Made by a program: the position numbers and the translations under genes
Part shown: positions 2,177-58,122 of the stretch, one piece after another
Position numbering within the stretch: the stretch's first letter is position 1
Layout of the letters: each line of letters opens with the position of its first letter
Notes under the pieces: generated by a model
Database searches by the model: none
What the model was told of the DNA's origin: nothing
What the model saw: only the letters and a program-made list of their open reading frames with translations
Sequence record: FJ373894
DNA length: 64,000 bases
Origin: Shigella phage Ag3
Reading direction: 5' to 3' (one strand)

Positions 2177-3239
2177 GGTCCATTTGCTCCAGCATGTTCG
2201 CAGGCATAACAGTACCGTTAGAAACACCGAACATCTTCTTCACGTCATCGGCGAAGTCGACATTCTCCAGCAGCGGATACCAGAAATCATCATCCATCTG
2301 ACGCTTCTGATATTTCTTTTCCTTCTCAGGATCGAAGCCGCCCTTGGCTGTACGCACATACCAGCCGGAAGACGGCATATCAACGTAACCCAGAGCACGA
2401 GCGATCTCAAGTAGACCGCTCCAACGGTCAATACCGCCGTCGTACAGCACTGTCACAGGGAGTTTGGCTTTCTCTTTGACATGGCGACCTTTCATGATGC
2501 CGATGTTGAAGTTCCAGCCCAGCAGATCTTTGTCTTCCTTCACCTGAGAACGGGTGATGAACCAGATCAGGTTAGACGACAGGAAGCCCTGCTTGCCGCC
2601 TTTGATGTTAGGCTCGGCATACTGGTTGCCGATCTCGTCATAGTAGGAGTTGATCCACACCAGCACGAGGTCTTTGCTGTTGATTTCAGGAGTGATGACG
2701 CGCCAGAAGCTGTTGAGGGCACGGGCACGGGTCATGTCTTGGGTGTCGTTGCCTTTGATCGCATCTTCAACTTCCTTAGTGGAGGGAAGCTGGCTGATAG
2801 AGTCAATAAAGATGATGACATGGTCACCCTTCTTAACTTCCTGAAGGATTTGTAGTAGGCGGATCTTAGTCTGCTCAACGTTGTCAATCGGTACGTACAG
2901 GACGCGGTCCATGTCAATGCCCATGGAGGTCCAGTAATCGGCGTTGGCACCTTTTTCCGAATCCGCGAAGATACACAGGGCATCAGGGAACTTGTCCATG
3001 TACGCCTTGACATCTACCAGACCGAACATCGTTTTGAAGGTACGGGAATCACCCACCATCATCTTGATACCGGAGATCAGGCCACCGTCAATACGCCCAG
3101 ACCAGGCGATGTCGATCAGGGGAATACCAGTAGAACAGATGATAGACGGTTCCAGCGCGTCGGATTGGGACAGCACTGAAGCCTGGTCGTCATGTTTCTT
3201 GGCAACCTTCAGCATGCGGTCCATTAATGAACTGGCCAT
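2154..3239 (-). CDS. uvsX: UvsX recombinase (RecA family)
   Basis: 361 aa; strong similarity to T4 UvsX core (atypical Walker A GDSRTFKT, FIDSIS Walker B, DMTRA, KLPVTVLYDGGID); upstream of gene 41 as in T4. Confidence 0.85.
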   Translation of the reverse strand: MASSLMDRMLKVAKKHDDQASVLSQSDALEPSIICSTGIPLIDIAWSGRIDGGLISGIKMMVGDSRTFKTMFGLVDVKAYMDKFPDALCIFADSEKGANADYWTSMGIDMDRVLYVPIDNVEQTKIRLLQILQEVKKGDHVIIFIDSISQLPSTKEVEDAIKGNDTQDMTRARALNSFWRVITPEINSKDLVLVWINSYYDEIGNQYAEPNIKGGKQGFLSSNLIWFITRSQVKEDKDLLGWNFNIGIMKGRHVKEKAKLPVTVLYDGGIDRWSGLLEIARALGYVDMPSSGWYVRTAKGGFDPEKEKKYQKRQMDDDFWYPLLENVDFADDVKKMFGVSNGTVMPANMLEQMDHVINTSE

Positions 3240-3766
3240 TTCACTTCCTCTTTATTGTTGATCGTCGTTAATAATTCTACACCCATAACCTTCTGGGACA
3301 AAATGTTAACCGCCTCTTGGATGCTCTTCAGGGACATCATCTCAACAGGAGACGGTGCGTCATTATGTCGGTCGGTTAGGTACATATTGCGCAGATTGTT
3401 GTAGTTCGTGCGGTTGATGCACGCAGCGTTCAGCGCAATATTCAGGATATACATCATCTGTTCAATGGTTACATCCTTCGGCATGGCGTGGATGTAATAG
3501 ATCGAGCCTTCGAAGTAGACGTCCACCAGTTCATCTGGTATCTCGACGCCACCACTGGCATACTCTTCGATCATCCTGAACAGAGACTCTGGTTGCTCGC
3601 TGGCGATCTTATGCGTGACAGTCGCCGAAAGACCATCACCCAGTTTAACAGGCCTGGTGTATTCAGTGAGGAATACATTATGACCGCCGCCGATGATGTG
3701 CTCGGCGAAATTAGCGGATGCGTTCGCCGCGTTGTCTGCATGATATGAAACGACGACTGTAAACAT
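3224..3766 (-). CDS. hypothetical protein
   Basis: 180-aa ORF co-oriented in operon-like array; no recognised motif. Confidence 0.45.
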   Translation of the reverse strand: MFTVVVSYHADNAANASANFAEHIIGGGHNVFLTEYTRPVKLGDGLSATVTHKIASEQPESLFRMIEEYASGGVEIPDELVDVYFEGSIYYIHAMPKDVTIEQMMYILNIALNAACINRTNYNNLRNMYLTDRHNDAPSPVEMMSLKSIQEAVNILSQKVMGVELLTTINNKEEVKWPVH

Positions 3767-4320
3767 TAGAACTCCAGGGTCAGAGGGGTTTCTGTGGACT
3801 TGTCGTAATCCGCGCCGCCAGCAGCACGCAGACGATTGCGATCGTTCTTGCGCTTGTGTGCCAGCATGTAAGTCTCAATATCGATCTCCATGTAAGAACA
3901 CGCAGCCGACAGGAAGAACATGAGGGTCTCGACACAAGGTTCGTTCATGAACTGCCCAAGGCGATACGTCACACCGCGATGCCCAACAGCACCCAAAGCA
4001 GATGGGGTGAATTCGCGACCACCGAGGATTTCGAATTCTTCTTCGATCTCGCCTTTGGTGCGGTCCATAAGGATGAAGCACAGCATGAAGTGTACCACGT
4101 CCACCAGTTCATAGACTGCGTTCGCATGGTGAAACCCGACGTCGTTGCCATAGACCTTCCAGTCGCGACTGGTTTCGTCAAGGAACTCTGCCCATTCACG
4201 ATAGATGGAGTTGATGACTGCGTTCTGACTCCATACATTCTTCCACTCTTCCCCAAAGTAGGCCACGTTGGTGGCCTTTTGGAGTTCGAGCAGGCTTTTG
4301 ATATGCCCTGCTGTGATCAT
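3766..4320 (-). CDS. all-alpha NTP pyrophosphohydrolase (dimeric dUTPase/dCTPase, MazG-like)
   Basis: 184 aa; acidic helical motifs (EEW..W, EFLDE, HF) typical of dimeric dUTPase/MazG fold; adjacent to nucleotide-metabolism genes. Confidence 0.45.
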   Translation of the reverse strand: MITAGHIKSLLELQKATNVAYFGEEWKNVWSQNAVINSIYREWAEFLDETSRDWKVYGNDVGFHHANAVYELVDVVHFMLCFILMDRTKGEIEEEFEILGGREFTPSALGAVGHRGVTYRLGQFMNEPCVETLMFFLSAACSYMEIDIETYMLAHKRKNDRNRLRAAGGADYDKSTETPLTLEF

Positions 4321-4886
4321 TTACGTTCTCCGTAGAATTTAACGAACGGTGCCCAACCATCAAATGGATTGAGGAATTCGTAGTCCACTTCCATCTTGTC
4401 AATGAAAGCCTCTATATCGTCCTCTATGATACCAGCGCGGTCGGCCTTTGAAATGCGGGTGATAGGACATTTCGTACTCAGCGCCCATTCATATTCCTGA
4501 GGGGTACGCAGGTCACTCACGATGTAATGGACGTGAGGGTTCTGCTCTACCAGAGGAAGCTGGAAGCGCTTGAAGAACGCCAGGAACAGATCGGGCTGTA
4601 CATAACGCAAGCCCGTATCGCTGCCGAGATGGAGCCAGATCTGCCTTGGGGTTAAGCCCTTGGGGTTATCAGGGTGGACGTAAGGAACGTCCTTCACGGC
4701 ATCCTCTACCTCCGCTGGCAGCCATGGGTAGATGTAGTTGGCAACCCGGCGCAGTTCGTCTGAGAAAGAAAGACGCTGGATATCCATATCGCCCTGTAGA
4801 TGGTGATAGCTGATGAGGGACTCCAAACAGAAGTCCTTACCGGAGCGCTTGCGCCCCGTAAAGAATTCGAGGTTCGGGTACATCAT
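4317..4886 (-). CDS. 1: deoxynucleoside monophosphate kinase (T4 gp1-like)
   Basis: 189 aa; N-terminal P-loop FTGRKRSGKD matching T4 gp1 GVKRSGKD motif. Confidence 0.7.
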   Translation of the reverse strand: MMYPNLEFFTGRKRSGKDFCLESLISYHHLQGDMDIQRLSFSDELRRVANYIYPWLPAEVEDAVKDVPYVHPDNPKGLTPRQIWLHLGSDTGLRYVQPDLFLAFFKRFQLPLVEQNPHVHYIVSDLRTPQEYEWALSTKCPITRISKADRAGIIEDDIEAFIDKMEVDYEFLNPFDGWAPFVKFYGERK

Positions 4887-5932
4887 ACCACACCTTCCAG
4901 GAACTTAGGATCAACAATCTTGCGGTCAACTGGAGAATGGGTGAGCGCAATGTTCAAACCATGATCCTGAATCCGGTTCATGTTGATGAGCTTATCGTTC
5001 AGTTTGCAGTACAGGCAGTATGCCATTTGCATGATCAAGCCACGATCAGCATCATATTCCTTCAGGTGAGCAACCAAAGTTTCCCACGGGCTACCGATAT
5101 CACAATGATGGAGCACACCAGTGAACAGATTGCGGATATGGTTCTGGTTGGTCACGTTCTTGAAGTGAATCATGGAGTTGATGAACCCAGCTTCTACTTT
5201 GGTGTCCTTCGTGATCTTGCCCAGCTGCTTCTGGCTGACTTCATTGTTGTAGTAATGAAGATTGTTGGAGAAGAGCTTGTACTGGCCGACATCAACATCC
5301 AGCACCTGAGCAATCACTTCCTGAAGAATAGAGAACTCAATGAAGTTGATTGAACTCATCCCCCACAGAACATCCTGTGAGCGGTTGATGACCGTCAGGT
5401 TCAGGCGACCGTCAACGATGGCGAACAACAGAGCCAGGTTACACACCATGTCTTTAGTCTTCGCTTCGCCACTCTCGCTGAACTTCGCCAGGCCAGCATC
5501 TGAATCCAGAGCCGGATCATAGATGGTGAGGTACGCCTGACGGGTGTTTGGGTTCTTGCGCAGGCGGTTGATGACGCTATCCAGCTGGCCATGGGCGTAC
5601 AGACGCGGACCATAAGCGGCTCGCCATGTTACCCCATCATCCGAAAAGTTAGCAGCGCGAGGCAATACGCGTGACAGGAACTTTATGTCGTTGCGGCCTG
5701 ACAACACCCAGAAGGTCTCCCCAATAGCTGCGATAGCCGATGAGTTGCGACCTTCAACGGAGAGCCAGCGGTCACGAATATCGGAAACAGTGATCGTCAC
5801 ACCATCAAGGAATCGGGTGCCGTCCGTGTTGATCTCCGCGTTACCAGGGTCCGACTCAATTCCGTATTCGCGGATAGCCAAGACAGCCTGCTTCAGCATG
5901 TCATTGTTGTTAATTGCTTTGATTTCCATCAA
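4883..5932 (-). CDS. thymidylate synthase-family pyrimidine C5 methylase/hydroxymethylase
   Basis: 349 aa; TS-fold motifs (RQAYLTIYDP, catalytic Cys in KDMVCN, RSQDV...SINF with Asn at the pyrimidine-specificity position); longer than canonical ThyA and Cys-Asn replaces Pro-Cys-His. Confidence 0.75.
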   Translation of the reverse strand: MMEIKAINNNDMLKQAVLAIREYGIESDPGNAEINTDGTRFLDGVTITVSDIRDRWLSVEGRNSSAIAAIGETFWVLSGRNDIKFLSRVLPRAANFSDDGVTWRAAYGPRLYAHGQLDSVINRLRKNPNTRQAYLTIYDPALDSDAGLAKFSESGEAKTKDMVCNLALLFAIVDGRLNLTVINRSQDVLWGMSSINFIEFSILQEVIAQVLDVDVGQYKLFSNNLHYYNNEVSQKQLGKITKDTKVEAGFINSMIHFKNVTNQNHIRNLFTGVLHHCDIGSPWETLVAHLKEYDADRGLIMQMAYCLYCKLNDKLINMNRIQDHGLNIALTHSPVDRKIVDPKFLEGVV

Positions 5933-6603
5933 TCAATACTCCCAAAATCACGACAGAGGAATGCCATTACAGCCTGGTCTACTGTTAGACCGTGAGACTT
6001 CATCATACCTGCGGCCACCGTAGGGAACAAGCCTTTATGGCGCTGGCGATGGTCTTGAACACGCTCCCACTTCTCTACCACGAGGCTCTCATTGAAGTCC
6101 GCACCGCCGTTGCGTGATTTCACACGGGCGATGCACGTTTCAAGAGGGGTGTCCATGAAGAGAACAACCAGTTCGCGCGGTGGGCGCGTCAGGCGGGGGA
6201 TCCAGGAACTCAGTAGAGTTGAAGGGATGATGCCTTCGAAGATCACATCGTATACCTGATATTCAGGTAGATCAGCGATGCTCAGGGCGAAGAGCATTTG
6301 TTCAGTGTCCTTCAGTGAATCAACCCCCTTGGACTTTGACTTGTCATATTTGCCGATACACACCACGTTGAATGACGGGCAGACCGTCAACATAATCTTG
6401 CCGTCATGTGTCACAACATACGCCTGAGGATCCCTCTCCGCCAGCTGAGACGGTACGGTGGATTTGCCGCTACCATTGGAGCCTTTGACGTAATAGAGTT
6501 GCCCTCGTGCTGGGTAGATCCCCTTTACGACGGGTGGTTTAATGAATGTGTGGACGGGGCGCTTGAGCAACCCCTTGAGGGAGTAGGACATAGACTGCTC
6601 CAA
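5929..6603 (-). CDS. P-loop kinase (nucleotide/nucleic acid kinase family)
   Basis: 224 aa; Walker A GSNGSGKST; immediately downstream of the TS-family gene. Confidence 0.55.
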   Translation of the reverse strand: MEQSMSYSLKGLLKRPVHTFIKPPVVKGIYPARGQLYYVKGSNGSGKSTVPSQLAERDPQAYVVTHDGKIMLTVCPSFNVVCIGKYDKSKSKGVDSLKDTEQMLFALSIADLPEYQVYDVIFEGIIPSTLLSSWIPRLTRPPRELVVLFMDTPLETCIARVKSRNGGADFNESLVVEKWERVQDHRQRHKGLFPTVAAGMMKSHGLTVDQAVMAFLCRDFGSID

Positions 6604-6665
6604 TAAACAAAAGGAGCTGCTATTATAGCAGCCCCTTCATCTATTGAACAGCTTCTGAACTTAAA

Positions 6666-7532
6666 TTACGCGGCGGCTTTCGCTTCGGCCAGCGCCTGAG
6701 GCAACCATGCGTTGATTGCTTTGACCAGAGACTCAGCATCGGCCTCTTTGATCTTCTGGCGTTTGGTGAAGGACTTGCCGTTCACGTACAGACTGAAGCC
6801 CCAGCCGCCGGAAACGATAGGCGCGACGTCAACGTATGTGTTGGTGCGGGCGTGCAGGTTTTCAGGGTTGGCCAGTTCGGTGACCGGGAACTGGAACCAG
6901 CGCATGTCTGGGTTCACGTAGCTCAGGAACACACCTGGGACAACTCCTGCTTCAATCGCAGCCAAGACCGGACCGTGGGTAGATGCACGGGCGGCGTCAA
7001 CCATTTCTTCACGTTTGGTATGACGGCGTTTACGCTCTTCCAGCGCCGCCTGCGGGGTCAGGGTCTTACCCTTCGCCGCTTCTTTCAGCATAGAAGACGC
7101 CAGGGAACCTACTTTCGCGTCGGACGGCTGATTACCTTCTTCCAGCGCTGCGTTGACTGCGTCTTTAACCGCGTCTACCGGGGCGTCAGACACTGGGGCT
7201 TCACCTGCGTCGGCGTTACCAGCACCAGCGGTTGCGTCGGCAGAGATCGGCGCTTCAGCATCAACGGTTTCAGCGTCTTTCAGGGATACTTCAGCGTGGG
7301 CTTGCTCTTGGGCTTGCGCCAGAGCCTGCTGAGTTTCTTCCTTCTCTTCAGCGCTCAGACCTTCAATCAGTTCGAAGCCGTTGGCGGACTGAAGAACGCC
7401 TTCCACCATACGGCGCAGGGTAACGTTGCCGATCATCAGGCCTGCTTCTTTGATTTCAGCCTGGATAGCAGTAACGTCTTTGCCTTCAATTTCAATTTTG
7501 GTACCAGAATCTACATGAAGAATATATGACAT
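6666..7532 (-). CDS. hypothetical protein with acidic Ala/Glu-rich low-complexity linker
   Basis: ORF 6666..7634; likely start at internal Met (MSYILHV); central A/E/D-rich region. Confidence 0.45.
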   Translation of the reverse strand: MSYILHVDSGTKIEIEGKDVTAIQAEIKEAGLMIGNVTLRRMVEGVLQSANGFELIEGLSAEEKEETQQALAQAQEQAHAEVSLKDAETVDAEAPISADATAGAGNADAGEAPVSDAPVDAVKDAVNAALEEGNQPSDAKVGSLASSMLKEAAKGKTLTPQAALEERKRRHTKREEMVDAARASTHGPVLAAIEAGVVPGVFLSYVNPDMRWFQFPVTELANPENLHARTNTYVDVAPIVSGGWGFSLYVNGKSFTKRQKIKEADAESLVKAINAWLPQALAEAKAAA

Positions 7533-7708
7533 AATAAAAACCCTTTCGTTATTAAGACCGTCTTCGCGGCATATTGCTGTTCTGACTGTGTAGTGAGAAC
7601 ATAATATACTGCATTTTTCATAAATGTAAACCACTTTTTATTGAAAAGAAGTTTACACCTTAGTGTTACATGGTGCCCCGCCAAGCGGAGCGCGAACTTG
7701 CGTGAATA

Positions 7709-8002
7709 TTAACTTTCTACGTCAATATTGAAAACCATTTCCGGCGGCCAACAAGTTGTTAGCTCGACTTTTGCGAACCGTGGTTGGCAGTACGCATCAA
7801 CTGACTCATCAAACAGACAGTGTTCTACATTTGCGACCATCAGATCATCATCCAGCACTTCAACAGAATGGACAATGATCTTGTGGTCATACGTCAGGCA
7901 ACCGTCTAAATGCATGTTGTCGGCGCGGAGGTGTTGCATGATGAAATACTCTATGATCGACTCAAGGACAGTCGTCATCTTCAGATAACGTTTCATACAC
8001 AC
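7709..8002 (-). CDS. hypothetical protein
   Basis: 97-aa ORF, co-oriented, flanked by intergenic AT-rich region. Confidence 0.35.
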   Translation of the reverse strand: MCMKRYLKMTTVLESIIEYFIMQHLRADNMHLDGCLTYDHKIIVHSVEVLDDDLMVANVEHCLFDESVDAYCQPRFAKVELTTCWPPEMVFNIDVES

Positions 8003-8016
8003 CTCTCACAGTGGGG

Positions 8017-8766
8017 TTATTTGGACAGGTAGAAGTTTGGAACTTCAGGGAAATGCTCTGGTAGATATTCCCCCAGAATATCCTGCTTCACCTTCCCTTC
8101 GATATCTTCGCGGATCCGACGAATTACGTCTTCCTGTTGTTCTATCGCCATCACTTCTTCCATAGCGGAGTACAAGTTGTCTAGAATGACACCTACGTAG
8201 TTGTGGATGGCACGACAGGAGTTCTGGTCATACTCCATATCTGGATGAATCGCCAGGTCGACCTGATCACGCCCTACCAGCAGATGCCCAGACACCAGAT
8301 TTATCGGGTATTGGAATACTTCACCAGATTTGACAGCAACCCCGTCGGCTTGCTTCAGCAGGAATTCGGTTTCAGAGAAGCGTTCAAGTAGTTCCGATGG
8401 GAATACCATATCGAGATTCTGACGCTTGCGACTAAAGAAGTACAGACAATGCGCCAGTTTCAGGCATGCATCGGTAGCCATCTTCATGTGTGCTTTAGCG
8501 TGTTCATAACCAGCGATCACATCACGGACATAATCGTACAGGTCGGCATGACCAAAACGGATGTCCTCTTCGAAGCGGATTGCCGCCTCGCTGTCTGATT
8601 TCAAACCCAGCACGTCAAAGATGTTGTGTTCACGGACGGATCTGCCTTTGCGATCAAAGCCCAGAACACAACCGACTTCGAATCCACTCTTTTCAAAATT
8701 TGGGAGTTTCATATCAAGGCGAGCTGGGGTGAATTCCAACCCGAACATACGATAAAATTGTGACAT
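8017..8766 (-). CDS. hypothetical protein
   Basis: 249-aa ORF; ATG at 8764-8766; GC hairpin just upstream. Confidence 0.5.
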   Translation of the reverse strand: MSQFYRMFGLEFTPARLDMKLPNFEKSGFEVGCVLGFDRKGRSVREHNIFDVLGLKSDSEAAIRFEEDIRFGHADLYDYVRDVIAGYEHAKAHMKMATDACLKLAHCLYFFSRKRQNLDMVFPSELLERFSETEFLLKQADGVAVKSGEVFQYPINLVSGHLLVGRDQVDLAIHPDMEYDQNSCRAIHNYVGVILDNLYSAMEEVMAIEQQEDVIRRIREDIEGKVKQDILGEYLPEHFPEVPNFYLSK

Positions 8767-18700: not shown

Positions 18701-18925
18701 TCAGCGTTTGAGGCTGGCGGCGAGTCCACTAACGTCGGTCACGGTCTGGTCAGCGAGGACGATAACAGGCATAGACATGCGCTGTTTACCAGTCAACTTC
18801 TGAAGTTCTTCCAGCTGGTAGTCTTTGTCCAGCTTGAGGATCTTGTGTTCCATCCCTTTCATCTTGCACAGATTTTCGGCTGTTACACACTGAGCGCAAC
18901 CTTGTTTGGAATAGATCGTAATCAT
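18701..18925 (-). CDS. nrdH: glutaredoxin-like NrdH redoxin
   Basis: 74 aa; CAQC active site near N-terminus; immediately downstream of nrdA-nrdB. Confidence 0.75.
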   Translation of the reverse strand: MITIYSKQGCAQCVTAENLCKMKGMEHKILKLDKDYQLEELQKLTGKQRMSMPVIVLADQTVTDVSGLAASLKR

Positions 18926-18934
18926 TTCTCACCT

Positions 18935-20038
18935 TTAAGCGAATTTGAGGCCGTCGGATACTGAACCAGTCAGTACACCCATCAGATAATCGGGAGCTTC
19001 AGCTTCCTGCAATGCGTATTGCATTGTCTTATTATTTAGCCATTCGTTGATCCATGGCACTGGGCATTCCTTACGTGGTTCCCCAGGATATGGGTGTCCG
19101 ATAGCGCCCATGCGGTGGGTGAGCAACCAGTCTACCATATGGTGTAGGATCTTCGCGTTCAGACCAAGCATAGAGCCGTCCTGGAACAGATAGTCAGCCC
19201 ATTGCTTCTCCTGATTGCCCACGTCCAAGAACATCTGGGTCATCTCACCGCGCAGTTCCTCACGGATGATTTCGAAGTCAGGGTCCATACCAGGCAGGCG
19301 GTTCAGCAGCGTCTGGGTCAGGATCAGATGATCTTGCTCATCACGGGCGATCTGGCGGATGATTTTAGCATTGCCTTCCATCTTCTTCTGGAACTGTGTG
19401 AACGCCCAAGAGCATGCAAAGGACACGTAGAAGCGGATACCTTCCAGTGTGTTGGCAGCAAACAGAGCACGCCAGAATGCACGTTTGGCATTCATAATGT
19501 CTTCACGGGTAAAGGCACGACCAGCCATACGCATGCCGCTGTAACGAACCATGTCGTCATAGTGAGTACTAATCTGATGCGCGCAATCCACGATCTCTGC
19601 AACGTCCAACACGTGGTCAAACACGATGCCAGGATCGTTCACAGTGTTGCGCAGGATGTGGGTGTACGACAGAGAGTGAATGGCTTCCTGGCGTGTCCAC
19701 TCAAGGACGGCGAACTGCATTTCAGGGGTAGACGCCCACGGACCAAACGCCTCGAACGGAGCCGCACCCTGAATAGAATCCAGCATGGTCTGGCGCTTCA
19801 GGTTGCTCTCATAGATGCGCTTTTCAGCAGGTGTGAGGGTTGCATAGTCGGCCTTGTCCTTGGTGATGTCCACCTCTTCAGGACGCCAGAACTGGCTGAG
19901 ACCTTTCTCATACCACTTCTGTACGAATGGCCAGGCCACAATATCATAGCGCTGGATGCTCACTGGGTCACCGAAGAACGGCAGACCAGTGTTGTTCGAG
20001 CTTGGGTCGAATACGGAGAATTGTTTCTGTTCGCTCAT
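18935..20038 (-). CDS. nrdB: ribonucleotide reductase class Ia beta subunit
   Basis: ORF 18935..20104, start at Met23 (MSEQKQF); ferritin-like R2 fold with di-iron ligand helices. Confidence 0.9.
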   Translation of the reverse strand: MSEQKQFSVFDPSSNNTGLPFFGDPVSIQRYDIVAWPFVQKWYEKGLSQFWRPEEVDITKDKADYATLTPAEKRIYESNLKRQTMLDSIQGAAPFEAFGPWASTPEMQFAVLEWTRQEAIHSLSYTHILRNTVNDPGIVFDHVLDVAEIVDCAHQISTHYDDMVRYSGMRMAGRAFTREDIMNAKRAFWRALFAANTLEGIRFYVSFACSWAFTQFQKKMEGNAKIIRQIARDEQDHLILTQTLLNRLPGMDPDFEIIREELRGEMTQMFLDVGNQEKQWADYLFQDGSMLGLNAKILHHMVDWLLTHRMGAIGHPYPGEPRKECPVPWINEWLNNKTMQYALQEAEAPDYLMGVLTGSVSDGLKFA

Positions 20039-48592: not shown

Positions 48593-50794
48593 TTAAATTT
48601 TGATCTCTTTCTCTGCCAGTTCGGCAGTGACCTTGTACTTCACACCATCCACTTCAACTTCCATGGTGGACTCTTCCAGGTCGAGGTCGGTGAACCAGCC
48701 GTGGCCAGCAACGATACCATACACCACTTTAGACAGCGTCTTGTTCAGGGCGCGGACTTCGGTGATGGCCGCCTTGGCAGCAGCGTCGATCCAGTTTTCG
48801 ATCAGCTGTTTCTGTACGGCTTCAGGCACGGCAGTGATCGCAGGAGACTTCACGAATGCCTCGTACTCTTTCAGGGCATTGGCGATGAACAAGTCACCCG
48901 CATTGAGTTTCTTGTTCTCGGCAATCTTTTTCTGTACTGCCGCGATGCTAGGCAGAGAAGACGCCCCAGCGATCTTAACGTTCAGCTCACGGCTCATGTA
49001 GACATCCGTGGAGTCCTTCAGTTCGGTCTTCGGTGAGAAGCCGTAATCGCGGATGCCGTAGGAGGACAGGAACTCGGCCGCCTCAGCGCCGTACTGTACT
49101 GCCAGGCCTTTGGCGTTGCCTTTGCCAACCAGTTCATCACGGAAGAACTTCAGCACCTTCTGCTTGCCTTTCAGGGCTTCCAGACGGACGTTGTCAGCAA
49201 AGAACTGAGCAGCACTGATGTTCTTGACCATGGCGCGGTTGACCAGCGGTACGCTTTCCAGGTTCAGGACAAACACTTCCGGACCACCAAACACATGGAC
49301 GCCCATCTGACACAGATTGGTTACAACTTCAACATCAGCCCTGAACGGCAGAGTCTTCACGTTGATGATGCCGTCTTTGACGATGGTGTAGTTGCGCCAC
49401 TGGAAAGTATCCAGTTCTTCAGGCAGACCGAACTTCTTCTGCACGAACTCCGGAATCGCCACAGTGCCGTGTTGGACAGTGCGTACACTGATATTAGGGC
49501 GTTCGGAGTTATAGACCAAATCGCTGATTGGCACAACACCCAGATCGTTGGTAGGTTCGAACGTCGGGTTCCACTCTTCGTGCTCGGCCAGCTTGAGAGC
49601 CAGGGCTTTGCGCTCTTCTTTGGACTCGGCGTTCGCGATCTGTTCTGCCAGCTTGTCTTCGGTATCGTCCAGTTTCTGAGCCGTACCGCGACCGATGCTC
49701 TTGTAGGAGAACATAGGATGTTTGGTAGCAACACACACGCCAGCTTCAGCCAGATACGTCAGCACGTCAACGACGGTCGTCGCATCTTCAGCTGGAACCA
49801 GGTCATAGTCAATACCGTCAACGCCGCGCAGCTGGTCATCAACGATGGCCTGGGTCAGATCAACTTTGATGTTGGAGTAGTCCTGCTTGGTGAAGCAGTT
49901 GCTGTACTGTTTGATGAAGCGAACGTCACCAGTTTTCTTCAGTGCAGCCCACACCAGGTCTGCGTCCATGATGTGTACGCCGTAGAACGCCAGCACGTAT
50001 GCCGCCTGGATGTCCGCCAGTGCATCAAGCTGGTCGATCATGTTAGGATTGACGACCCACAGCTTCGTGACGCTCTCAGGGATGCTCACGTGGCCGATAG
50101 GATGGTCTTCATCCGGCTGTACCGCCAGCACAGTTGCTACGCCGTTTTCAACGTAGATGGCATGATCATACAGCAACGGAACATCAACAACCACTTTCGG
50201 CACCGAGGACTTCAGTACGTTTTCCAGCTCGGTCTGATATTCGGTCTGGCCTTCGGCGAACACGTGAGTCGCGCCGGAACGTTCAGACATCAGAGCCAGC
50301 AGTTCGCGGTTGCAGTACCAGCCGTATTCGATGAATGTGACGTTGTCGAAAGCGGAAGGAAGTTTTTCGGCGGTCTCCAGGATCTCATTGGAGCGCCAGC
50401 AGTTGTCATAACCATCGGTCATGAACGCCAGGTTGTTGACATAGCCAGGCTTCTTCAGACTACGAGCGGTGTCTACAGCCAGACCCAGAGGTTCCACGAA
50501 TCCAGTGCATCCGGACGGTTGTAGGAAGCGGTCGATCAGTTTGTTCAGCTCGCTCAGGTCAGATGCTGCACTAACCTGACGGCCAGCGAACACAGTACCA
50601 AAGTCGCCACGGGATGAGAAATACAGAACACTCACAGTGTCTTCCGGCTTCACCAGAGAAGGCAGGTTCTCCTTCAGATGCTTACGGACTTCAGGGAGCG
50701 CACGGTACATCGAATAAGAGATGTCCACAACGATTACATGGTTGGACGGGGCAGCAGTCGCAACCGCATTCTTAAATTCTAATGATTCAATCAT
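48593..50794 (-). CDS. von Willebrand factor A (MIDAS) domain protein
   Basis: ORF 48593..50878, probable start at internal Met (MIESLEF); N-terminal vWA with DxSxS (VVDISYSM) and TDG (FMTDGYDN) motifs; about 730 aa. Confidence 0.6.
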   Translation of the reverse strand: MIESLEFKNAVATAAPSNHVIVVDISYSMYRALPEVRKHLKENLPSLVKPEDTVSVLYFSSRGDFGTVFAGRQVSAASDLSELNKLIDRFLQPSGCTGFVEPLGLAVDTARSLKKPGYVNNLAFMTDGYDNCWRSNEILETAEKLPSAFDNVTFIEYGWYCNRELLALMSERSGATHVFAEGQTEYQTELENVLKSSVPKVVVDVPLLYDHAIYVENGVATVLAVQPDEDHPIGHVSIPESVTKLWVVNPNMIDQLDALADIQAAYVLAFYGVHIMDADLVWAALKKTGDVRFIKQYSNCFTKQDYSNIKVDLTQAIVDDQLRGVDGIDYDLVPAEDATTVVDVLTYLAEAGVCVATKHPMFSYKSIGRGTAQKLDDTEDKLAEQIANAESKEERKALALKLAEHEEWNPTFEPTNDLGVVPISDLVYNSERPNISVRTVQHGTVAIPEFVQKKFGLPEELDTFQWRNYTIVKDGIINVKTLPFRADVEVVTNLCQMGVHVFGGPEVFVLNLESVPLVNRAMVKNISAAQFFADNVRLEALKGKQKVLKFFRDELVGKGNAKGLAVQYGAEAAEFLSSYGIRDYGFSPKTELKDSTDVYMSRELNVKIAGASSLPSIAAVQKKIAENKKLNAGDLFIANALKEYEAFVKSPAITAVPEAVQKQLIENWIDAAAKAAITEVRALNKTLSKVVYGIVAGHGWFTDLDLEESTMEVEVDGVKYKVTAELAEKEIKI

Positions 50795-50957
50795 CGTTAT
50801 TGCCTTCTTCAGGGTTGTCTTCGGCCTCACCTTCCGGCTTGACCAGCATGTGTTCCAGGAAATCGCGATTGAGTTCAATCTGACTCATCAGCGTTTCCGA
50901 TGGGCTAAAGCGGCGGTCGAGGTTGTCGACGCCCGCACGTTCAAATGGTTTGGCCAT
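50787..50957 (-). CDS. small acidic protein
   Basis: ORF 50787..51014 with start at internal Met (MAKPFER). Confidence 0.35.
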   Translation of the reverse strand: MAKPFERAGVDNLDRRFSPSETLMSQIELNRDFLEHMLVKPEGEAEDNPEEGNNDD

Positions 50958-51360: not shown

Positions 51361-53004
51361 TCAGATTTGTGAGGCCAGTTCCGCCACCAGAGGAGCGGCG
51401 CGGACACGCGCATCTTCCAGAGTTTGAGTGTTGAAGAACTTGCCGTCACGATACACCAGCTGGTGCTGGTTGTCGGCGTCTTGTACCTGATCAAAGGTGA
51501 TACCGTCAACCAACACTAGTTTACCCTGAGAGTCTTTAATGACTTTAAGGAAACCACGCGCAGACTTTTTAGTCCCGCCTTTATCGGTCTTCGGCTCTTT
51601 GAAGATCTCACGGAATTCACCGTTCACCTTACCAGCCGTTGCTTTCACCGCCGTGCCAGTACTGTCACGGGTGTTCATCTGGTAGGTGTAGGAACCGATA
51701 CCGAACACCACGTTGATGGAAGCGAAGTTCCGGCCAGCCAGACGGCTAAAGATCTGGTCTTCACGCGCCAGGGTGATGGAGTCGCCGTAAATCAGACCGA
51801 TGTGTTCGTCCAACAGGAAGTGGCCAGTTTCGGTCTGGGTCCCGCCAAAGATCTCCCACAGGCGCTGGATAGAGCCGACTGCTTCAGAACGGCTGATGAT
51901 ATTACGGTCGTCTGCCATCAGAGAGTTGATCGTGCCTTCGCCTGTAATCAGGTGATAGGTGTTCGTCTCTTCGATGTGAATGACTTCGGTGCTGCTAGAC
52001 ACGCCGCTGATGTTCAGCGTGGCGCGGTCTTTGAACCCCTCAATTCGGTAGCCGCCGACGATATGAACTGGGTCGCCCGAGTCAGGGCGGATCACGACTT
52101 TACCGTTACGCGCCATGATAATATCTTTCAGGCGCGGCAGATAGTCGTCGATGACCTGCCAGTAATCCCACGCATCAGACACGATGCTGACGATGCCATC
52201 AGGATACACGTCCTGCACCAGGCGGCGGAAGGTTTCGAATTCGCCATCCTTCGTACCCATACACATCACGGCGTGTTCGGTAGCCGCAACAGAACCAGCA
52301 ACGACATAGTCTTCGTCGATGTCTGCGCCATAATACTCTTCAACGAACGTGCGCCCACCGTCGCAGATATCATCGACCACCACCAGATAACGGTCTTTGA
52401 TCAGTTCAGGGTTTGTAATGCTCACCCCAATGATCTCACCAGTCTTGGTGTCACGGTTCTTGTGTCCGTAGACAACAGGAACGCCATCCAATGACAGGCT
52501 GAGGGCTTCGGTCTTCTTCGCCGCGCCGCCGTCAGGAGCTACCAGCACAGCGTTGTTCCCACGGATGAACCAGCCCAGATACTGCCGCACGATGTAATCT
52601 TGCGGGACAACATGGACGTTGTTGATCAGAGAAGTCACAACATGGCTGTGAGGGTCTTTGATCGCCACACGGTCAAAGTTCATGCTATTGATGAACTCAG
52701 CCGCCCACTTCACGGACAGAGGCTCTCCGAAGTCGCAATGGCGGTCCTGGCGAGCATACGGGAAGTAAGGGATATACGCATGGAAGGTCGTCAGACGGTC
52801 CACGTTACCCAGGCCGCGCACGGCGTTAACCAGCAGTGCCAGCTCAACGAAGTCGGCTGATGATTTGATGTGGGCATCAATCACCACGTTCTGGACGTGG
52901 CCGACAGGGATACCAGCCTTTTGGATCTTGATATGTTCCTCACCACCTGGGAAGGTGAAGTGTTTGTAGAACACATCTTGGTCGTTCAATTTCAAACGAA
53001 ACAT
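51361..53004 (-). CDS. fusion protein: ribose-phosphate pyrophosphokinase-like N-terminus joined to nicotinamide phosphoribosyltransferase-like C-terminus
   Basis: 547 aa; residues ~1-225 carry Prs motifs (FPGGE, PYFPYARQDR, VLVAPDGGAAKK, VVVDDICDGGRT); residues ~226-547 match the NAMPT C-terminal half (YYG..VAATEHA, VSIVSDAWDYW, RPDSGDP). Confidence 0.75.
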   Translation of the reverse strand: MFRLKLNDQDVFYKHFTFPGGEEHIKIQKAGIPVGHVQNVVIDAHIKSSADFVELALLVNAVRGLGNVDRLTTFHAYIPYFPYARQDRHCDFGEPLSVKWAAEFINSMNFDRVAIKDPHSHVVTSLINNVHVVPQDYIVRQYLGWFIRGNNAVLVAPDGGAAKKTEALSLSLDGVPVVYGHKNRDTKTGEIIGVSITNPELIKDRYLVVVDDICDGGRTFVEEYYGADIDEDYVVAGSVAATEHAVMCMGTKDGEFETFRRLVQDVYPDGIVSIVSDAWDYWQVIDDYLPRLKDIIMARNGKVVIRPDSGDPVHIVGGYRIEGFKDRATLNISGVSSSTEVIHIEETNTYHLITGEGTINSLMADDRNIISRSEAVGSIQRLWEIFGGTQTETGHFLLDEHIGLIYGDSITLAREDQIFSRLAGRNFASINVVFGIGSYTYQMNTRDSTGTAVKATAGKVNGEFREIFKEPKTDKGGTKKSARGFLKVIKDSQGKLVLVDGITFDQVQDADNQHQLVYRDGKFFNTQTLEDARVRAAPLVAELASQI

Positions 53005-56901: not shown

Positions 56902-58122
56902 TTATTCAGGTTTCTTCAAACGGTCCAGCAAATTGACGGAACCACGTTTGAGCACGACTTCATCACAGCGCTTTTTGTATTCCCCACCGCCGTCATAGCT
57001 GACCTTGCCCCGAGGTTTTTCGCCGCGCCCAACCGCCTCAACACAGCGAGTGTACTTGCTCAGTTCACAGAACATGTTCTCCAGCTGCATAACGTTCATG
57101 CATTGGTCTACAGGCTCTTCGGCCGACCAGAATTGCTCGCGAACATACCCATATTGGGAGTACACTGCGTCCTGATTATCCCGTAGCCAGAATATGCATT
57201 CTTCGTGAGTCATGCCGTCCTTGTTCAGGAACAGCAGATCAATACCTGCGCGACAGCCCGGTCCGGCGATCGTGAAGTGGTTCTCACTGAACGGATAACC
57301 AGGCATGTACGTGAAGTCAACCCAGATCTGGTATGCCAGGAATGGACCAAGACCTTCGATGTCGTCGTACATGCGCTGGTATACTTCCAGAGGAGTACCA
57401 AGGCGCAGCAGGTCATGGAAGTAATTTGGATACTTGTTGACGAATGCCTTCAGGGAACGGATGACACGCATTGGCATGTACGGCTCCCAGCCTTCTATGG
57501 TGTAGAAGTCCGGCTCTGCTTCAGCAATAGCCTTGGCTTCCTTATAATCCATGTTCTGGGTCGAACCGTCCTTACAGATCAGGTTCACCATCATCCCACC
57601 GAAGCGCTGCTCTTTGTGGTTGACAACCAGCTCAGGGAAAGCCAGGCATTGCTTCAGACCGCCTGTGTTGAAGGCATTGGTGAATACTTTACCGCCGTCG
57701 GCCTCGAACTTCTGAAGTCGTTCGCGGGTTGCGTCAAGGTTGATCTTGGCGAATTCTTTGATCGTCATCGCGCCGCCGATAGCCTGGATCGGATCCCAGA
57801 GGTTGAACATGCGGAACAGAACGCAGTTGAACATCTTGTCTGCCATGCCCAGAGCATCGTTCTTGACGATGTTATTGATCAGGTTGAGAGACTGCCTGTC
57901 GTGCTCTCTCCGGACGTTACAGAACTTGACCTGCCGTAGTATAGGATTATTGGTCCAAGGGGCAGGAAGACGCTGGACGTCCTTCTTGACGTGGATCTTA
58001 TAGCGCTCGCTCATCCATTCGTAAGACAGGCGGGTATGGGTCGGACTGAGAACCGGTTTGGCCGACTTTATCTTTTCTTCACGGACACCGCAGTACGGGA
58101 CGTCCAGGGCTTTATCTTTCAT
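56902..58122 (-). CDS. hypothetical protein
   Basis: 406 aa; no recognised motif. Confidence 0.5.
   Translation of the reverse strand: MKDKALDVPYCGVREEKIKSAKPVLSPTHTRLSYEWMSERYKIHVKKDVQRLPAPWTNNPILRQVKFCNVRREHDRQSLNLINNIVKNDALGMADKMFNCVLFRMFNLWDPIQAIGGAMTIKEFAKINLDATRERLQKFEADGGKVFTNAFNTGGLKQCLAFPELVVNHKEQRFGGMMVNLICKDGSTQNMDYKEAKAIAEAEPDFYTIEGWEPYMPMRVIRSLKAFVNKYPNYFHDLLRLGTPLEVYQRMYDDIEGLGPFLAYQIWVDFTYMPGYPFSENHFTIAGPGCRAGIDLLFLNKDGMTHEECIFWLRDNQDAVYSQYGYVREQFWSAEEPVDQCMNVMQLENMFCELSKYTRCVEAVGRGEKPRGKVSYDGGGEYKKRCDEVVLKRGSVNLLDRLKKPE

Follow-up and report, generated by a model that had tools for sequence, protein, structure and literature searches.

The closest described analogue of the locus treated here is the thymidine hypermodification pathway of Salmonella phage ViI (Kuttervirus), whose DNA carries 5-(2-aminoethoxy)methyl-deoxyuridine (5-NeOmdU; deoxyuridine is abbreviated dU below) at ~ 40% of the T positions, as does the DNA of CBA120, CBA6 and 1.255.O. 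According to the same study, genes for a 5-hydroxymethyl-dU (5-hmdU) DNA kinase (5-HMUDK) co-occur with genes for a dUMP hydroxymethyltransferase, and the phages reported to have this syntenic gene set include SKML-39, AG3 and LIMEstone, the first two of which belong to Agtrevirus (Lee et al. 2018, PMC5889632). The pre-replicative scheme of the hydroxymethyluracil (hmU) phages was later applied explicitly to ViI (Lee et al. 2021, PMC8989533), and a 2024 review describes the hypermodification genes as conserved across the Ackermannviridae. Here, we analyzed a stretch of 64,000 nucleotides from Shigella phage Ag3 (record FJ373894), the whole of which is referred to as the window; the paper on SW16-7, a phage 97% identical to it, lists the same genes. 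The region at positions 3766-6603 very probably represents the nucleotide-pool arm, and the initial step on the DNA itself, of the Vi1-type pathway by which Ackermannviridae phages hypermodify thymidine.

Bacillus phage SPO1 follows a similar programme, comprising a dUMP hydroxymethylase (gp29), a deoxynucleoside monophosphate (dNMP) kinase, dUTP- and dTTP-clearing enzymes and dCMP deaminase, but it stops at 5-hmdU and has no 5-HMUDK. In the Pseudomonas M6, PaMx11 and Yuavirus clusters, a dUMP hydroxymethyltransferase likewise stands beside 5-hmdU DNA kinase genes, together with a phosphohydrolase, a nucleotide kinase and dCMP deaminase; these phages, however, are siphoviruses unrelated to the window phage, and their glycine transferase, radical SAM or flavin enzymes lead to 5-NedU or 5-NmdU, not to 5-NeOmdU. 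The hydroxymethylcytosine (hmC) module of T4 (gp42, gp1 and gp56) has the same three-enzyme design as the window region. Its gp1 shares a PHROG family with the dNMP kinase of the window, and gp56, a dCTPase/dUTPase, we take to be a member of the same all-alpha superfamily as the window pyrophosphatase, in which it was reportedly placed by Moroz and colleagues in 2005. The T4 system differs from the Vi1 type in acting on cytosine instead of uracil and in decorating DNA by glucosyltransferases, whereas in the Vi1 type this task falls to a DNA kinase together with an amino-acid transferase. An earlier prediction made from the window sequence had compared the region with the T-even phages, in which such an arrangement supports hydroxymethyl-pyrimidine DNA; the hmU pathway of SPO1 and ViI, not the T-even hmC pathway, turned out to be the closest analogue.

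Organization of the module

The region from 3766 to 6603 is filled by four open reading frames (ORFs), all on the minus strand. In the order of transcription, they are as follows (aa, amino acids):

6591 to 5929, minus strand: P-loop kinase gene, predicted 5-HMUDK, 220 aa
5929 to 4883, minus strand: thymidylate synthase (TS)-family gene, 348 aa
4886 to 4317, minus strand: gp1-like kinase gene, 189 aa
4320 to 3766, minus strand: dUTPase_2-family pyrophosphatase gene, 184 aa

All four genes named in the original prediction are present, although its wording, with the TS-family gene followed by the kinases and preceded by the pyrophosphatase, describes the plus-strand order; read along the coding strand, the module opens with the P-loop kinase and closes with the pyrophosphatase, after which come an ACT-like gene and then UvsX. 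Adjacent module genes overlap by 1-4 nt at their starts and stops (TGATG or ATGA junctions), with a 1-nt overlap between the kinase stop codon and the TS-family start codon, and the module therefore forms one operon that is apparently translationally coupled. In the list of ORFs from which the prediction was made, the first two genes start with TTG, at 6603 (224 aa) and 5932 (349 aa). These starts are probably wrong: the ATG codons at 6591 and 5929 are preceded by GGAG-type ribosome-binding sites and give proteins equal in length to the ViI orthologs, making them the likely starts of proteins of 220 and 348 aa, respectively.

At the nucleotide level, the 3-kb module region shares 98.9% identity with Salmonella phage P46FS4, the nearest relative in RefSeq, 96-97% with SP-9-14, SW16-7 (97%), ChubbyThor, SKML-39 and MK-13, and ~ 92% with the Dickeya Limestoneviruses. 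The same pattern of identities was repeated across the first 25 kb of the window, indicating that it comes from an Agtrevirus-type phage of the Ackermannviridae. The comparison with ViI revealed the same gene order (5-HMUDK, TS homolog, dnk, dUTPase_2, ACT-like, UvsX), with protein identities of 56-92%, and a homolog of ViI gp160 with a MazG-like neighbor is present as well. The two phages differ in subfamily (Aglimvirinae for the window phage, Cvivirinae for ViI), and the kinases are clearly better conserved between them than the pyrophosphatase (62%) or the ACT-like protein (56%).

The predicted dUMP hydroxymethyltransferase

These data raise a key question, which the original prediction had left open: is the 348-aa protein a thymidylate synthase or a dUMP hydroxymethylase? 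If it were an ordinary TS, the module would be a plain dTTP supply made up of ThyA, thymidylate/dNMP kinases and dUTPase. This possibility can be supported by the match to PF00303, which exceeds the gathering score (E 3.9e-16, 59.4 bits, cut-off 24.3) and spans residues 68-236 only, by the presence of all core residues for dUMP binding and Cys attack, by the labels 'thymidylate synthase' and 'thymidylate kinase' in databases (RefSeq, PHROGs), and by the ~ 60% of thymine that remains in ViI-like DNA. However, the seven NCBIfam models for ThyA equivalogs gave only 19.6-58.8 bits against cut-offs of 108-427, so that none of them was reached.

The original prediction had named an alignment against ThyA and the dCMP and dUMP hydroxymethylases, with attention to the hydride-transfer residues, as one way to check it. 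An alignment was made of the window protein, ViI orf66, the dUMP hydroxymethyltransferase (dU-hmt) of Yuavirus Lydia, SPO1 gp29, T4 gp42 and E. coli ThyA; the gp42 and ThyA sequences were verified against PDB. The protein is longer than E. coli ThyA, as had been noted, by 84 aa rather than ~ 85. Val-Cys163-Asn164 stands opposite Pro-Cys146-His147 of ThyA, which bears out the Cys-Asn reported in place of Pro-Cys-His, and Asn195, within SINF, aligns with ThyA Asn177, SPO1 gp29 Asn194 and Asp179 of the T4 dCMP hydroxymethylase, so that Asn is indeed kept at the position selecting uracil over cytosine. Besides Cys163 and Asn195, the enzyme retains Glu71, Tyr106, Arg130, Arg183-Ser184-x-Asp186, His225 and Tyr227. 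With ThyA (EC 2.1.1.45), it thus shares the superfamily and the nucleotide-binding and nucleophile residues (Cys, Arg-Ser-x-Asp, Asn, His/Tyr, Glu and Tyr), at an identity of 23%.

What is missing is the part of ThyA that handles folate and hydride transfer. Of the folate-stacking tryptophans, Trp83 is replaced by Phe95 and Trp80 falls in an alignment gap, in a part of the alignment of moderate reliability; His147 is changed to Asn164, Leu143 to Asp and Arg127 to Gln131, and the closing C-terminus of ThyA gives way to an unrelated tail of ~ 110 aa. The changes of His147 to Asn and Leu143 to Asp, as well as an [FY]SDDG motif, are common to the window enzyme, SPO1 gp29 and the Yuavirus dU-hmt. 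With SPO1 gp29, the enzyme further shares 34% identity over the catalytic core (E 5e-33), a PCN-type motif (VCN in the window enzyme), the uracil-selecting Asn and a long C-terminal tail unlike that of ThyA.

Sequence comparisons ranked the families in the same way, with dUMP hydroxymethylases first. In blastp, the window enzyme scored 122 bits with the Lydia dU-hmt (33% identity) and 115 bits with SPO1 gp29, about twice the value for E. coli ThyA (62 bits), while no match to the dCMP hydroxymethylase T4 gp42 was found. Among the PHROG families, phrog_3676, the Ackermannviridae type, gave 617 bits, phrog_5131, which holds SPO1 gp29 and the M6-type Lydia enzyme, 201 bits, and phrog_160, which holds both ThyA and T4 gp42, 92 bits. 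The protein is 77.7% identical to ViI orf66, which occupies the same place in the gene order, and an hmdU-derived base is present in ViI-like phages. Finally, the adjacent gene labeled 'thymidylate kinase' encodes a predicted 5-hmdU DNA kinase (see below), which would be left without a substrate unless hmdU is made; since this kinase needs hmdU in DNA, its presence supports the hydroxymethylase option.

On these grounds, namely the missed equivalog cut-offs, the lost folate residues and the 5-HMUDK neighbor, we reject a plain ThyA identity for the 348-aa protein and regard an ordinary TS as very improbable. The hydroxymethylase option is favored by the ViI orthology, the closeness to SPO1 gp29, the loss of the ThyA folate and hydride residues and the adjacent 5-hmdU DNA kinase. 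The enzyme is thus predicted to be a dUMP hydroxymethyltransferase, making 5-hydroxymethyl-dUMP (5-hmdUMP) from dUMP and methylene-tetrahydrofolate. Of the two options left open earlier, hydroxymethylase stands and thymidylate synthase falls; the uracil substrate deduced from the conserved Asn was correct, and the enzyme lies closer to the dUMP hydroxymethylases.

Another important question is whether the substrate could be a cytosine nucleotide, either dCMP, as for T4 gp42, or CMP, as for MilA, which would point to hydroxymethyl-cytosine DNA of the T-even kind. The best match among solved structures is in fact the CMP 5-hydroxymethylase MilA (E 1.7e-17), and the gp1-like kinase and all-alpha NTP pyrophosphatase lend the module a T4-like flavor. 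Yet the window enzyme has Asn195 at the selecting position, an Asn that it shares with ThyA and SPO1 gp29 and where gp42 has Asp, and in the MilA alignment an Asp lies adjacent to the selecting position at which the window enzyme has Asn. In ThyA, His207 and Tyr209 bind the 3'-OH of the deoxyribose, and both are kept in the window enzyme as His225 and Tyr227. Furthermore, ViI-like DNA has normal dC and modified T. The MilA match is therefore read as reflecting a scaffold of the hydroxymethylase type rather than cytosine specificity. Given Asn195, the lack of detectable similarity to gp42 and the normal dC of ViI-like DNA, a dCMP or CMP hydroxymethylase was rejected, and we assign this possibility a practically negligible probability.

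The tail of the predicted dUMP hydroxymethyltransferase (~ 110 aa, encoded at 4883-5230) had no Pfam match, and phmmer searches of PDB with the C-terminal 119 aa returned nothing. It is not aligned by profiles with the C-terminal extensions of SPO1 or M6-type enzymes, the PHROG matches ending near residue 250, and looks lineage-specific. A single-sequence AlphaFold2 model of the 348-aa enzyme was unusable (mean pLDDT 34, pTM 0.23).

The predicted 5-hydroxymethyl-dU DNA kinase

The 220-aa product of the first gene matched the Pfam family PF18748 (HMUDK_HMUD1) with E 3.2e-107 and 356.9 bits (cut-off 27), and the match is near full-length, with residues 18-212 covering profile positions 1-195 of 196. 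The protein is 87.7% identical across all 220 aa to ViI gp67 (YP_004327432), which occupies the same genomic position and phosphorylates 5-hmdU DNA in vitro (PMC8989533). Judging by this match and this orthology, the P-loop protein is 5-HMUDK (kinase 1), a DNA-base kinase and not a nucleotide kinase, and its predicted activity is the transfer of phosphate onto the hydroxymethyl group of hmdU already present in DNA, yielding 5-PmdU. Thus, of the two flanking kinases proposed earlier, the T4 gp1-like dNMP kinase holds (phrog_139), whereas the separate P-loop kinase acts, by this assignment, on DNA. This had gone unrecognized in the prediction, although it is the hallmark enzyme that decides between the two options for the TS-family protein.

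The public labels of this gene are different. In RefSeq and in phrog_800, the 220-aa kinase is called 'terminase small subunit', and some GenBank records have 'thymidylate kinase'. The first label was rejected because the ViI small terminase is annotated separately, beside the large terminase, and the second because of the 357 bits with PF18748 and the 88% identity to an assayed 5-hmdU DNA kinase. The labels 'terminase small subunit', 'thymidylate kinase' and, for the neighboring gene, 'thymidylate synthase' are propagated misannotations.

The predicted dNMP kinase and pyrophosphatase

The 189-aa kinase matched phrog_139, 'deoxynucleoside monophosphate kinase', with E 5.7e-47, and T4 gp1 itself matched this family with E 1.8e-65 (the gp1 query was verified to be identical to PDB 1DEK). 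In the pairwise comparison of the two proteins, only the P-loop segment GxKRSGKD was significant (E 0.003); a second collinear segment, LG(S/T)D ... Y(I/Y)V(S/P)D(L/T)R, was weak (E 0.43). The identity to ViI 'dnk' orf65 is 92%. No Pfam match, no phmmer match in PDB and no NCBIfam model were found for this kinase. The protein is predicted to be a dNMP kinase of the T4 gp1 type, turning 5-hmdUMP into 5-hydroxymethyl-dUDP (5-hmdUDP).

The pyrophosphatase had been described as similar to dimeric dUTPases, and this description was upheld by PF08761 (dUTPase_2; E 1.8e-7, 32.1 bits, cut-off 22.9), whose profile positions 2-158 of 162 correspond to residues 7-166, and by phrog_173 (E 5.5e-40). The best PDB match is the dimeric dUTPase of Campylobacter jejuni, 1w2y, with which four acidic residues align in an ExxE ... 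ExxD arrangement: E42, E45, E71 and D74 correspond to E46, E49, E74 and D77 of 1w2y, which are presumably metal ligands. The protein is 62% identical to ViI orf63, and the NCBIfam dUTPase equivalog model gave 27.8 bits against a cut-off of 300. The 184-aa all-alpha NTP pyrophosphatase is probably active and is predicted to be a dUTPase, possibly a dTTPase too, as in hmU phages, which would supply dUMP and keep dU, and possibly dT, out of DNA.

A second locus and the genes of relatives

Searches of the window with ViI proteins (tblastn) revealed two more genes related to the pathway:

56902 to 58122, minus strand: homolog of ViI gp160 (aGPT-PPlase clade 1, now Pfam 'HMUDK_hel'), 406 aa
58192 to 59061, minus strand: MazG-like pyrophosphatase gene adjoining the gp160 homolog, 289 aa

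The gp160 homolog (tblastn match 58122-56905) has 84% identity over 407 aa and matched PF18723 with E 8.5e-82; by homology, its locus is the second hypermodification locus inside the window. When 5-NeOmdU was reconstituted with a mix of lysates containing five ViI proteins, gp160 was one of them, the requirement for it not being established there (PMC5889632). The MazG-like protein (tblastn match 59061-58195) is 61% identical to ViI orf161 and matched phrog_2144, 'MazG-like pyrophosphatase', with E 1.2e-131; it had no Pfam match and is a candidate for a further sanitizer of the nucleotide pool. NCBIfam has no model for either protein.

The same searches found no homologs of gp226, gp243 or gp247 and no dCMP deaminase in the window; from the ViI gene order, these genes are expected outside it. 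In P46FS4, the homolog of gp247, a serine:DNA transferase (PF18724), is 92% identical, and that of gp226, a pyridoxal phosphate (PLP) decarboxylase, is 93% identical, so that the same final chemistry as in ViI can be expected. In P46FS4, the second 5-hmdU DNA kinase (17564-19156; PF18747 HMUD2, the homolog of ViI gp243) lacks its first ~ 13 codons and half of the P-loop. A gene for a GIY-YIG homing endonuclease ends inside it, and the ORF as annotated begins at the position corresponding to Met75; the ViI pathway differs in this respect from that of P46FS4, where the kinase has been cut into.

The proposed pathway

According to the scheme that we propose, the pyrophosphatase and a dCMP deaminase encoded outside the window would supply dUMP, while dUTP would be kept from DNA and dTTP may be removed. 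Cys163 of the 348-aa enzyme would then attack C6 of dUMP, with methylene-tetrahydrofolate donating the methylene group, and the addition of water instead of hydride would release 5-hmdUMP. The gp1-like dNMP kinase would convert it to 5-hmdUDP and the host NDP kinase to 5-hydroxymethyl-dUTP, from which the phage polymerase would put hmdU in place of T. On the DNA, 5-HMUDK would phosphorylate the hydroxymethyl group to give 5-PmdU. The remaining steps would be carried out from outside the window: an amino acid:DNA transferase of the gp247 type would swap the phosphate for serine, via the serine hydroxyl, and a PLP decarboxylase of the gp226 type would yield 5-NeOmdU, the expected end product in this phage, a base that blocks many restriction enzymes and so shields phage DNA from those of the host. 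The steps of 5-HMUDK, serine transfer and decarboxylation are proposed on the basis of high identity to enzymes assayed in ViI, while those from dUMP supply to hmdU incorporation we infer from family membership and the published hmU-phage scheme.

Several points weigh against this interpretation. We found in the literature neither an Agtrevirus or Limestonevirus genome whose nucleosides had been analyzed nor a direct assay of a TS homolog of the ViI type, the hydroxymethylase activity being deduced; the paper on PP35 (Limestonevirus) names orthologous ORFs, the structure of the modification being 'yet to be determined' there. The homologs of gp226, gp243 and gp247 lie outside the window, and we infer their presence in this phage from its relatives. 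The substrate ranges of the pyrophosphatase and the dNMP kinase are predictions, and the alignment is uncertain near ThyA Arg21 and Trp80. Moreover, ~ 60% of the T positions in ViI DNA hold plain thymine; going by the sequence alone, the 348-aa enzyme may therefore also contribute to dTMP synthesis.

This last point leads to the idea of an enzyme with a dual outcome, which would release 5-hmdUMP together with some dTMP and so explain why ~ 40% of T is hypermodified. The source of plain thymine in ViI-type genomes is unresolved in the literature, the enzyme retains Tyr106 and Glu71 from the proton-relay network of TS, and only one TS-family gene is present within the 64-kb window. On the other hand, the published view is that ViI DNA is first made with hmdU fully replacing T and is partly converted to T on the polymer, and the folate-positioning residues for hydride transfer are lost; we consider the dual outcome highly unlikely.

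Within the reading as a Vi1-type pathway, the lineage may end with a base other than the 5-NeOmdU of ViI or with a different modified fraction. Room for this is left by the identity of only 56-62% of the pyrophosphatase and the ACT-like protein to ViI, by the disrupted second DNA kinase of P46FS4 and by the unassigned role of the gp160-type protein, which might, for example, reconvert phosphorylated hmdU to thymine; all the same, we think such a departure unlikely. The module is an ordinary member of a known system, and its biology is already covered by Lee et al. 2018 and 2021. The main value of the analysis lies in the correction of the annotation, as the public labels hide that the phage almost certainly carries hypermodified thymidine. 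This matters for restriction digestion, sequencing chemistry, escape from CRISPR and restriction, and the therapeutic use of Ackermannviridae phages.

Neighboring genes and other features of the window

Two further features border the module:

3766 to 3224, minus strand: ACT-like domain protein gene, 180 aa (PF24021 ACT_phage, E 1.1e-80)
6610 to 6638, minus strand: terminator-like hairpin, a 13-bp stem followed by a T-run (pattern scan, consensus match only)

The ACT-like gene is co-transcribed with the module; it shares 1 nt with the stop codon of the pyrophosphatase gene and 16 nt with the beginning of UvsX. All 268 records of this protein come from Ackermannviridae, and wherever annotated (30 rows listed), its gene adjoins those of the pyrophosphatase and/or UvsX. 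Co-occurrence with a hydroxymethylase was looked for outside the Ackermannviridae and not found, so that this comparison gave no lead to its function.

The hairpin (6638-6610) sits between the upstream gene and the kinase gene and sets the operon apart. Within 3000-8200, sigma-70-like and terminator-like matches were no commoner than in shuffled sequence. A scan of the whole window for the T4-type late promoter motif TATAAATA gave three occurrences (9545, 29707 and 39812), against 0.6 expected, none of them near the module. The upstream ORF (6666-7634, minus strand) encodes 322 aa from a GTG start, with 288-322 aa annotated in relatives; its central stretch is rich in Ala, Glu and Asp, it belongs to no Pfam family, and the terminator-like hairpin lies 3' of the gene. 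The label 'succinate/fumarate mitochondrial', given to it in one record, seems implausible.

Neither tRNA nor tmRNA genes were detected in the 64-kb window. The ORF at 51361-53004 (minus strand, 547 aa) is a chimera of a ribose-phosphate pyrophosphokinase (~ aa 1-219) and a nicotinamide phosphoribosyltransferase (~ aa 227-554), which are separate overlapping genes in Shigella phage ChubbyThor. Compared with ChubbyThor, the window has an 872-bp deletion with its junction at about 52340-52347 and 8 bp of microhomology, which fuses the two reading frames; judging from the sequence, this phage probably no longer has an active NAD+ salvage pair. Downstream of this remnant, the gene at 48593-50878 (minus strand) encodes a protein of 761 aa that carries a von Willebrand factor A domain at its N-terminus.

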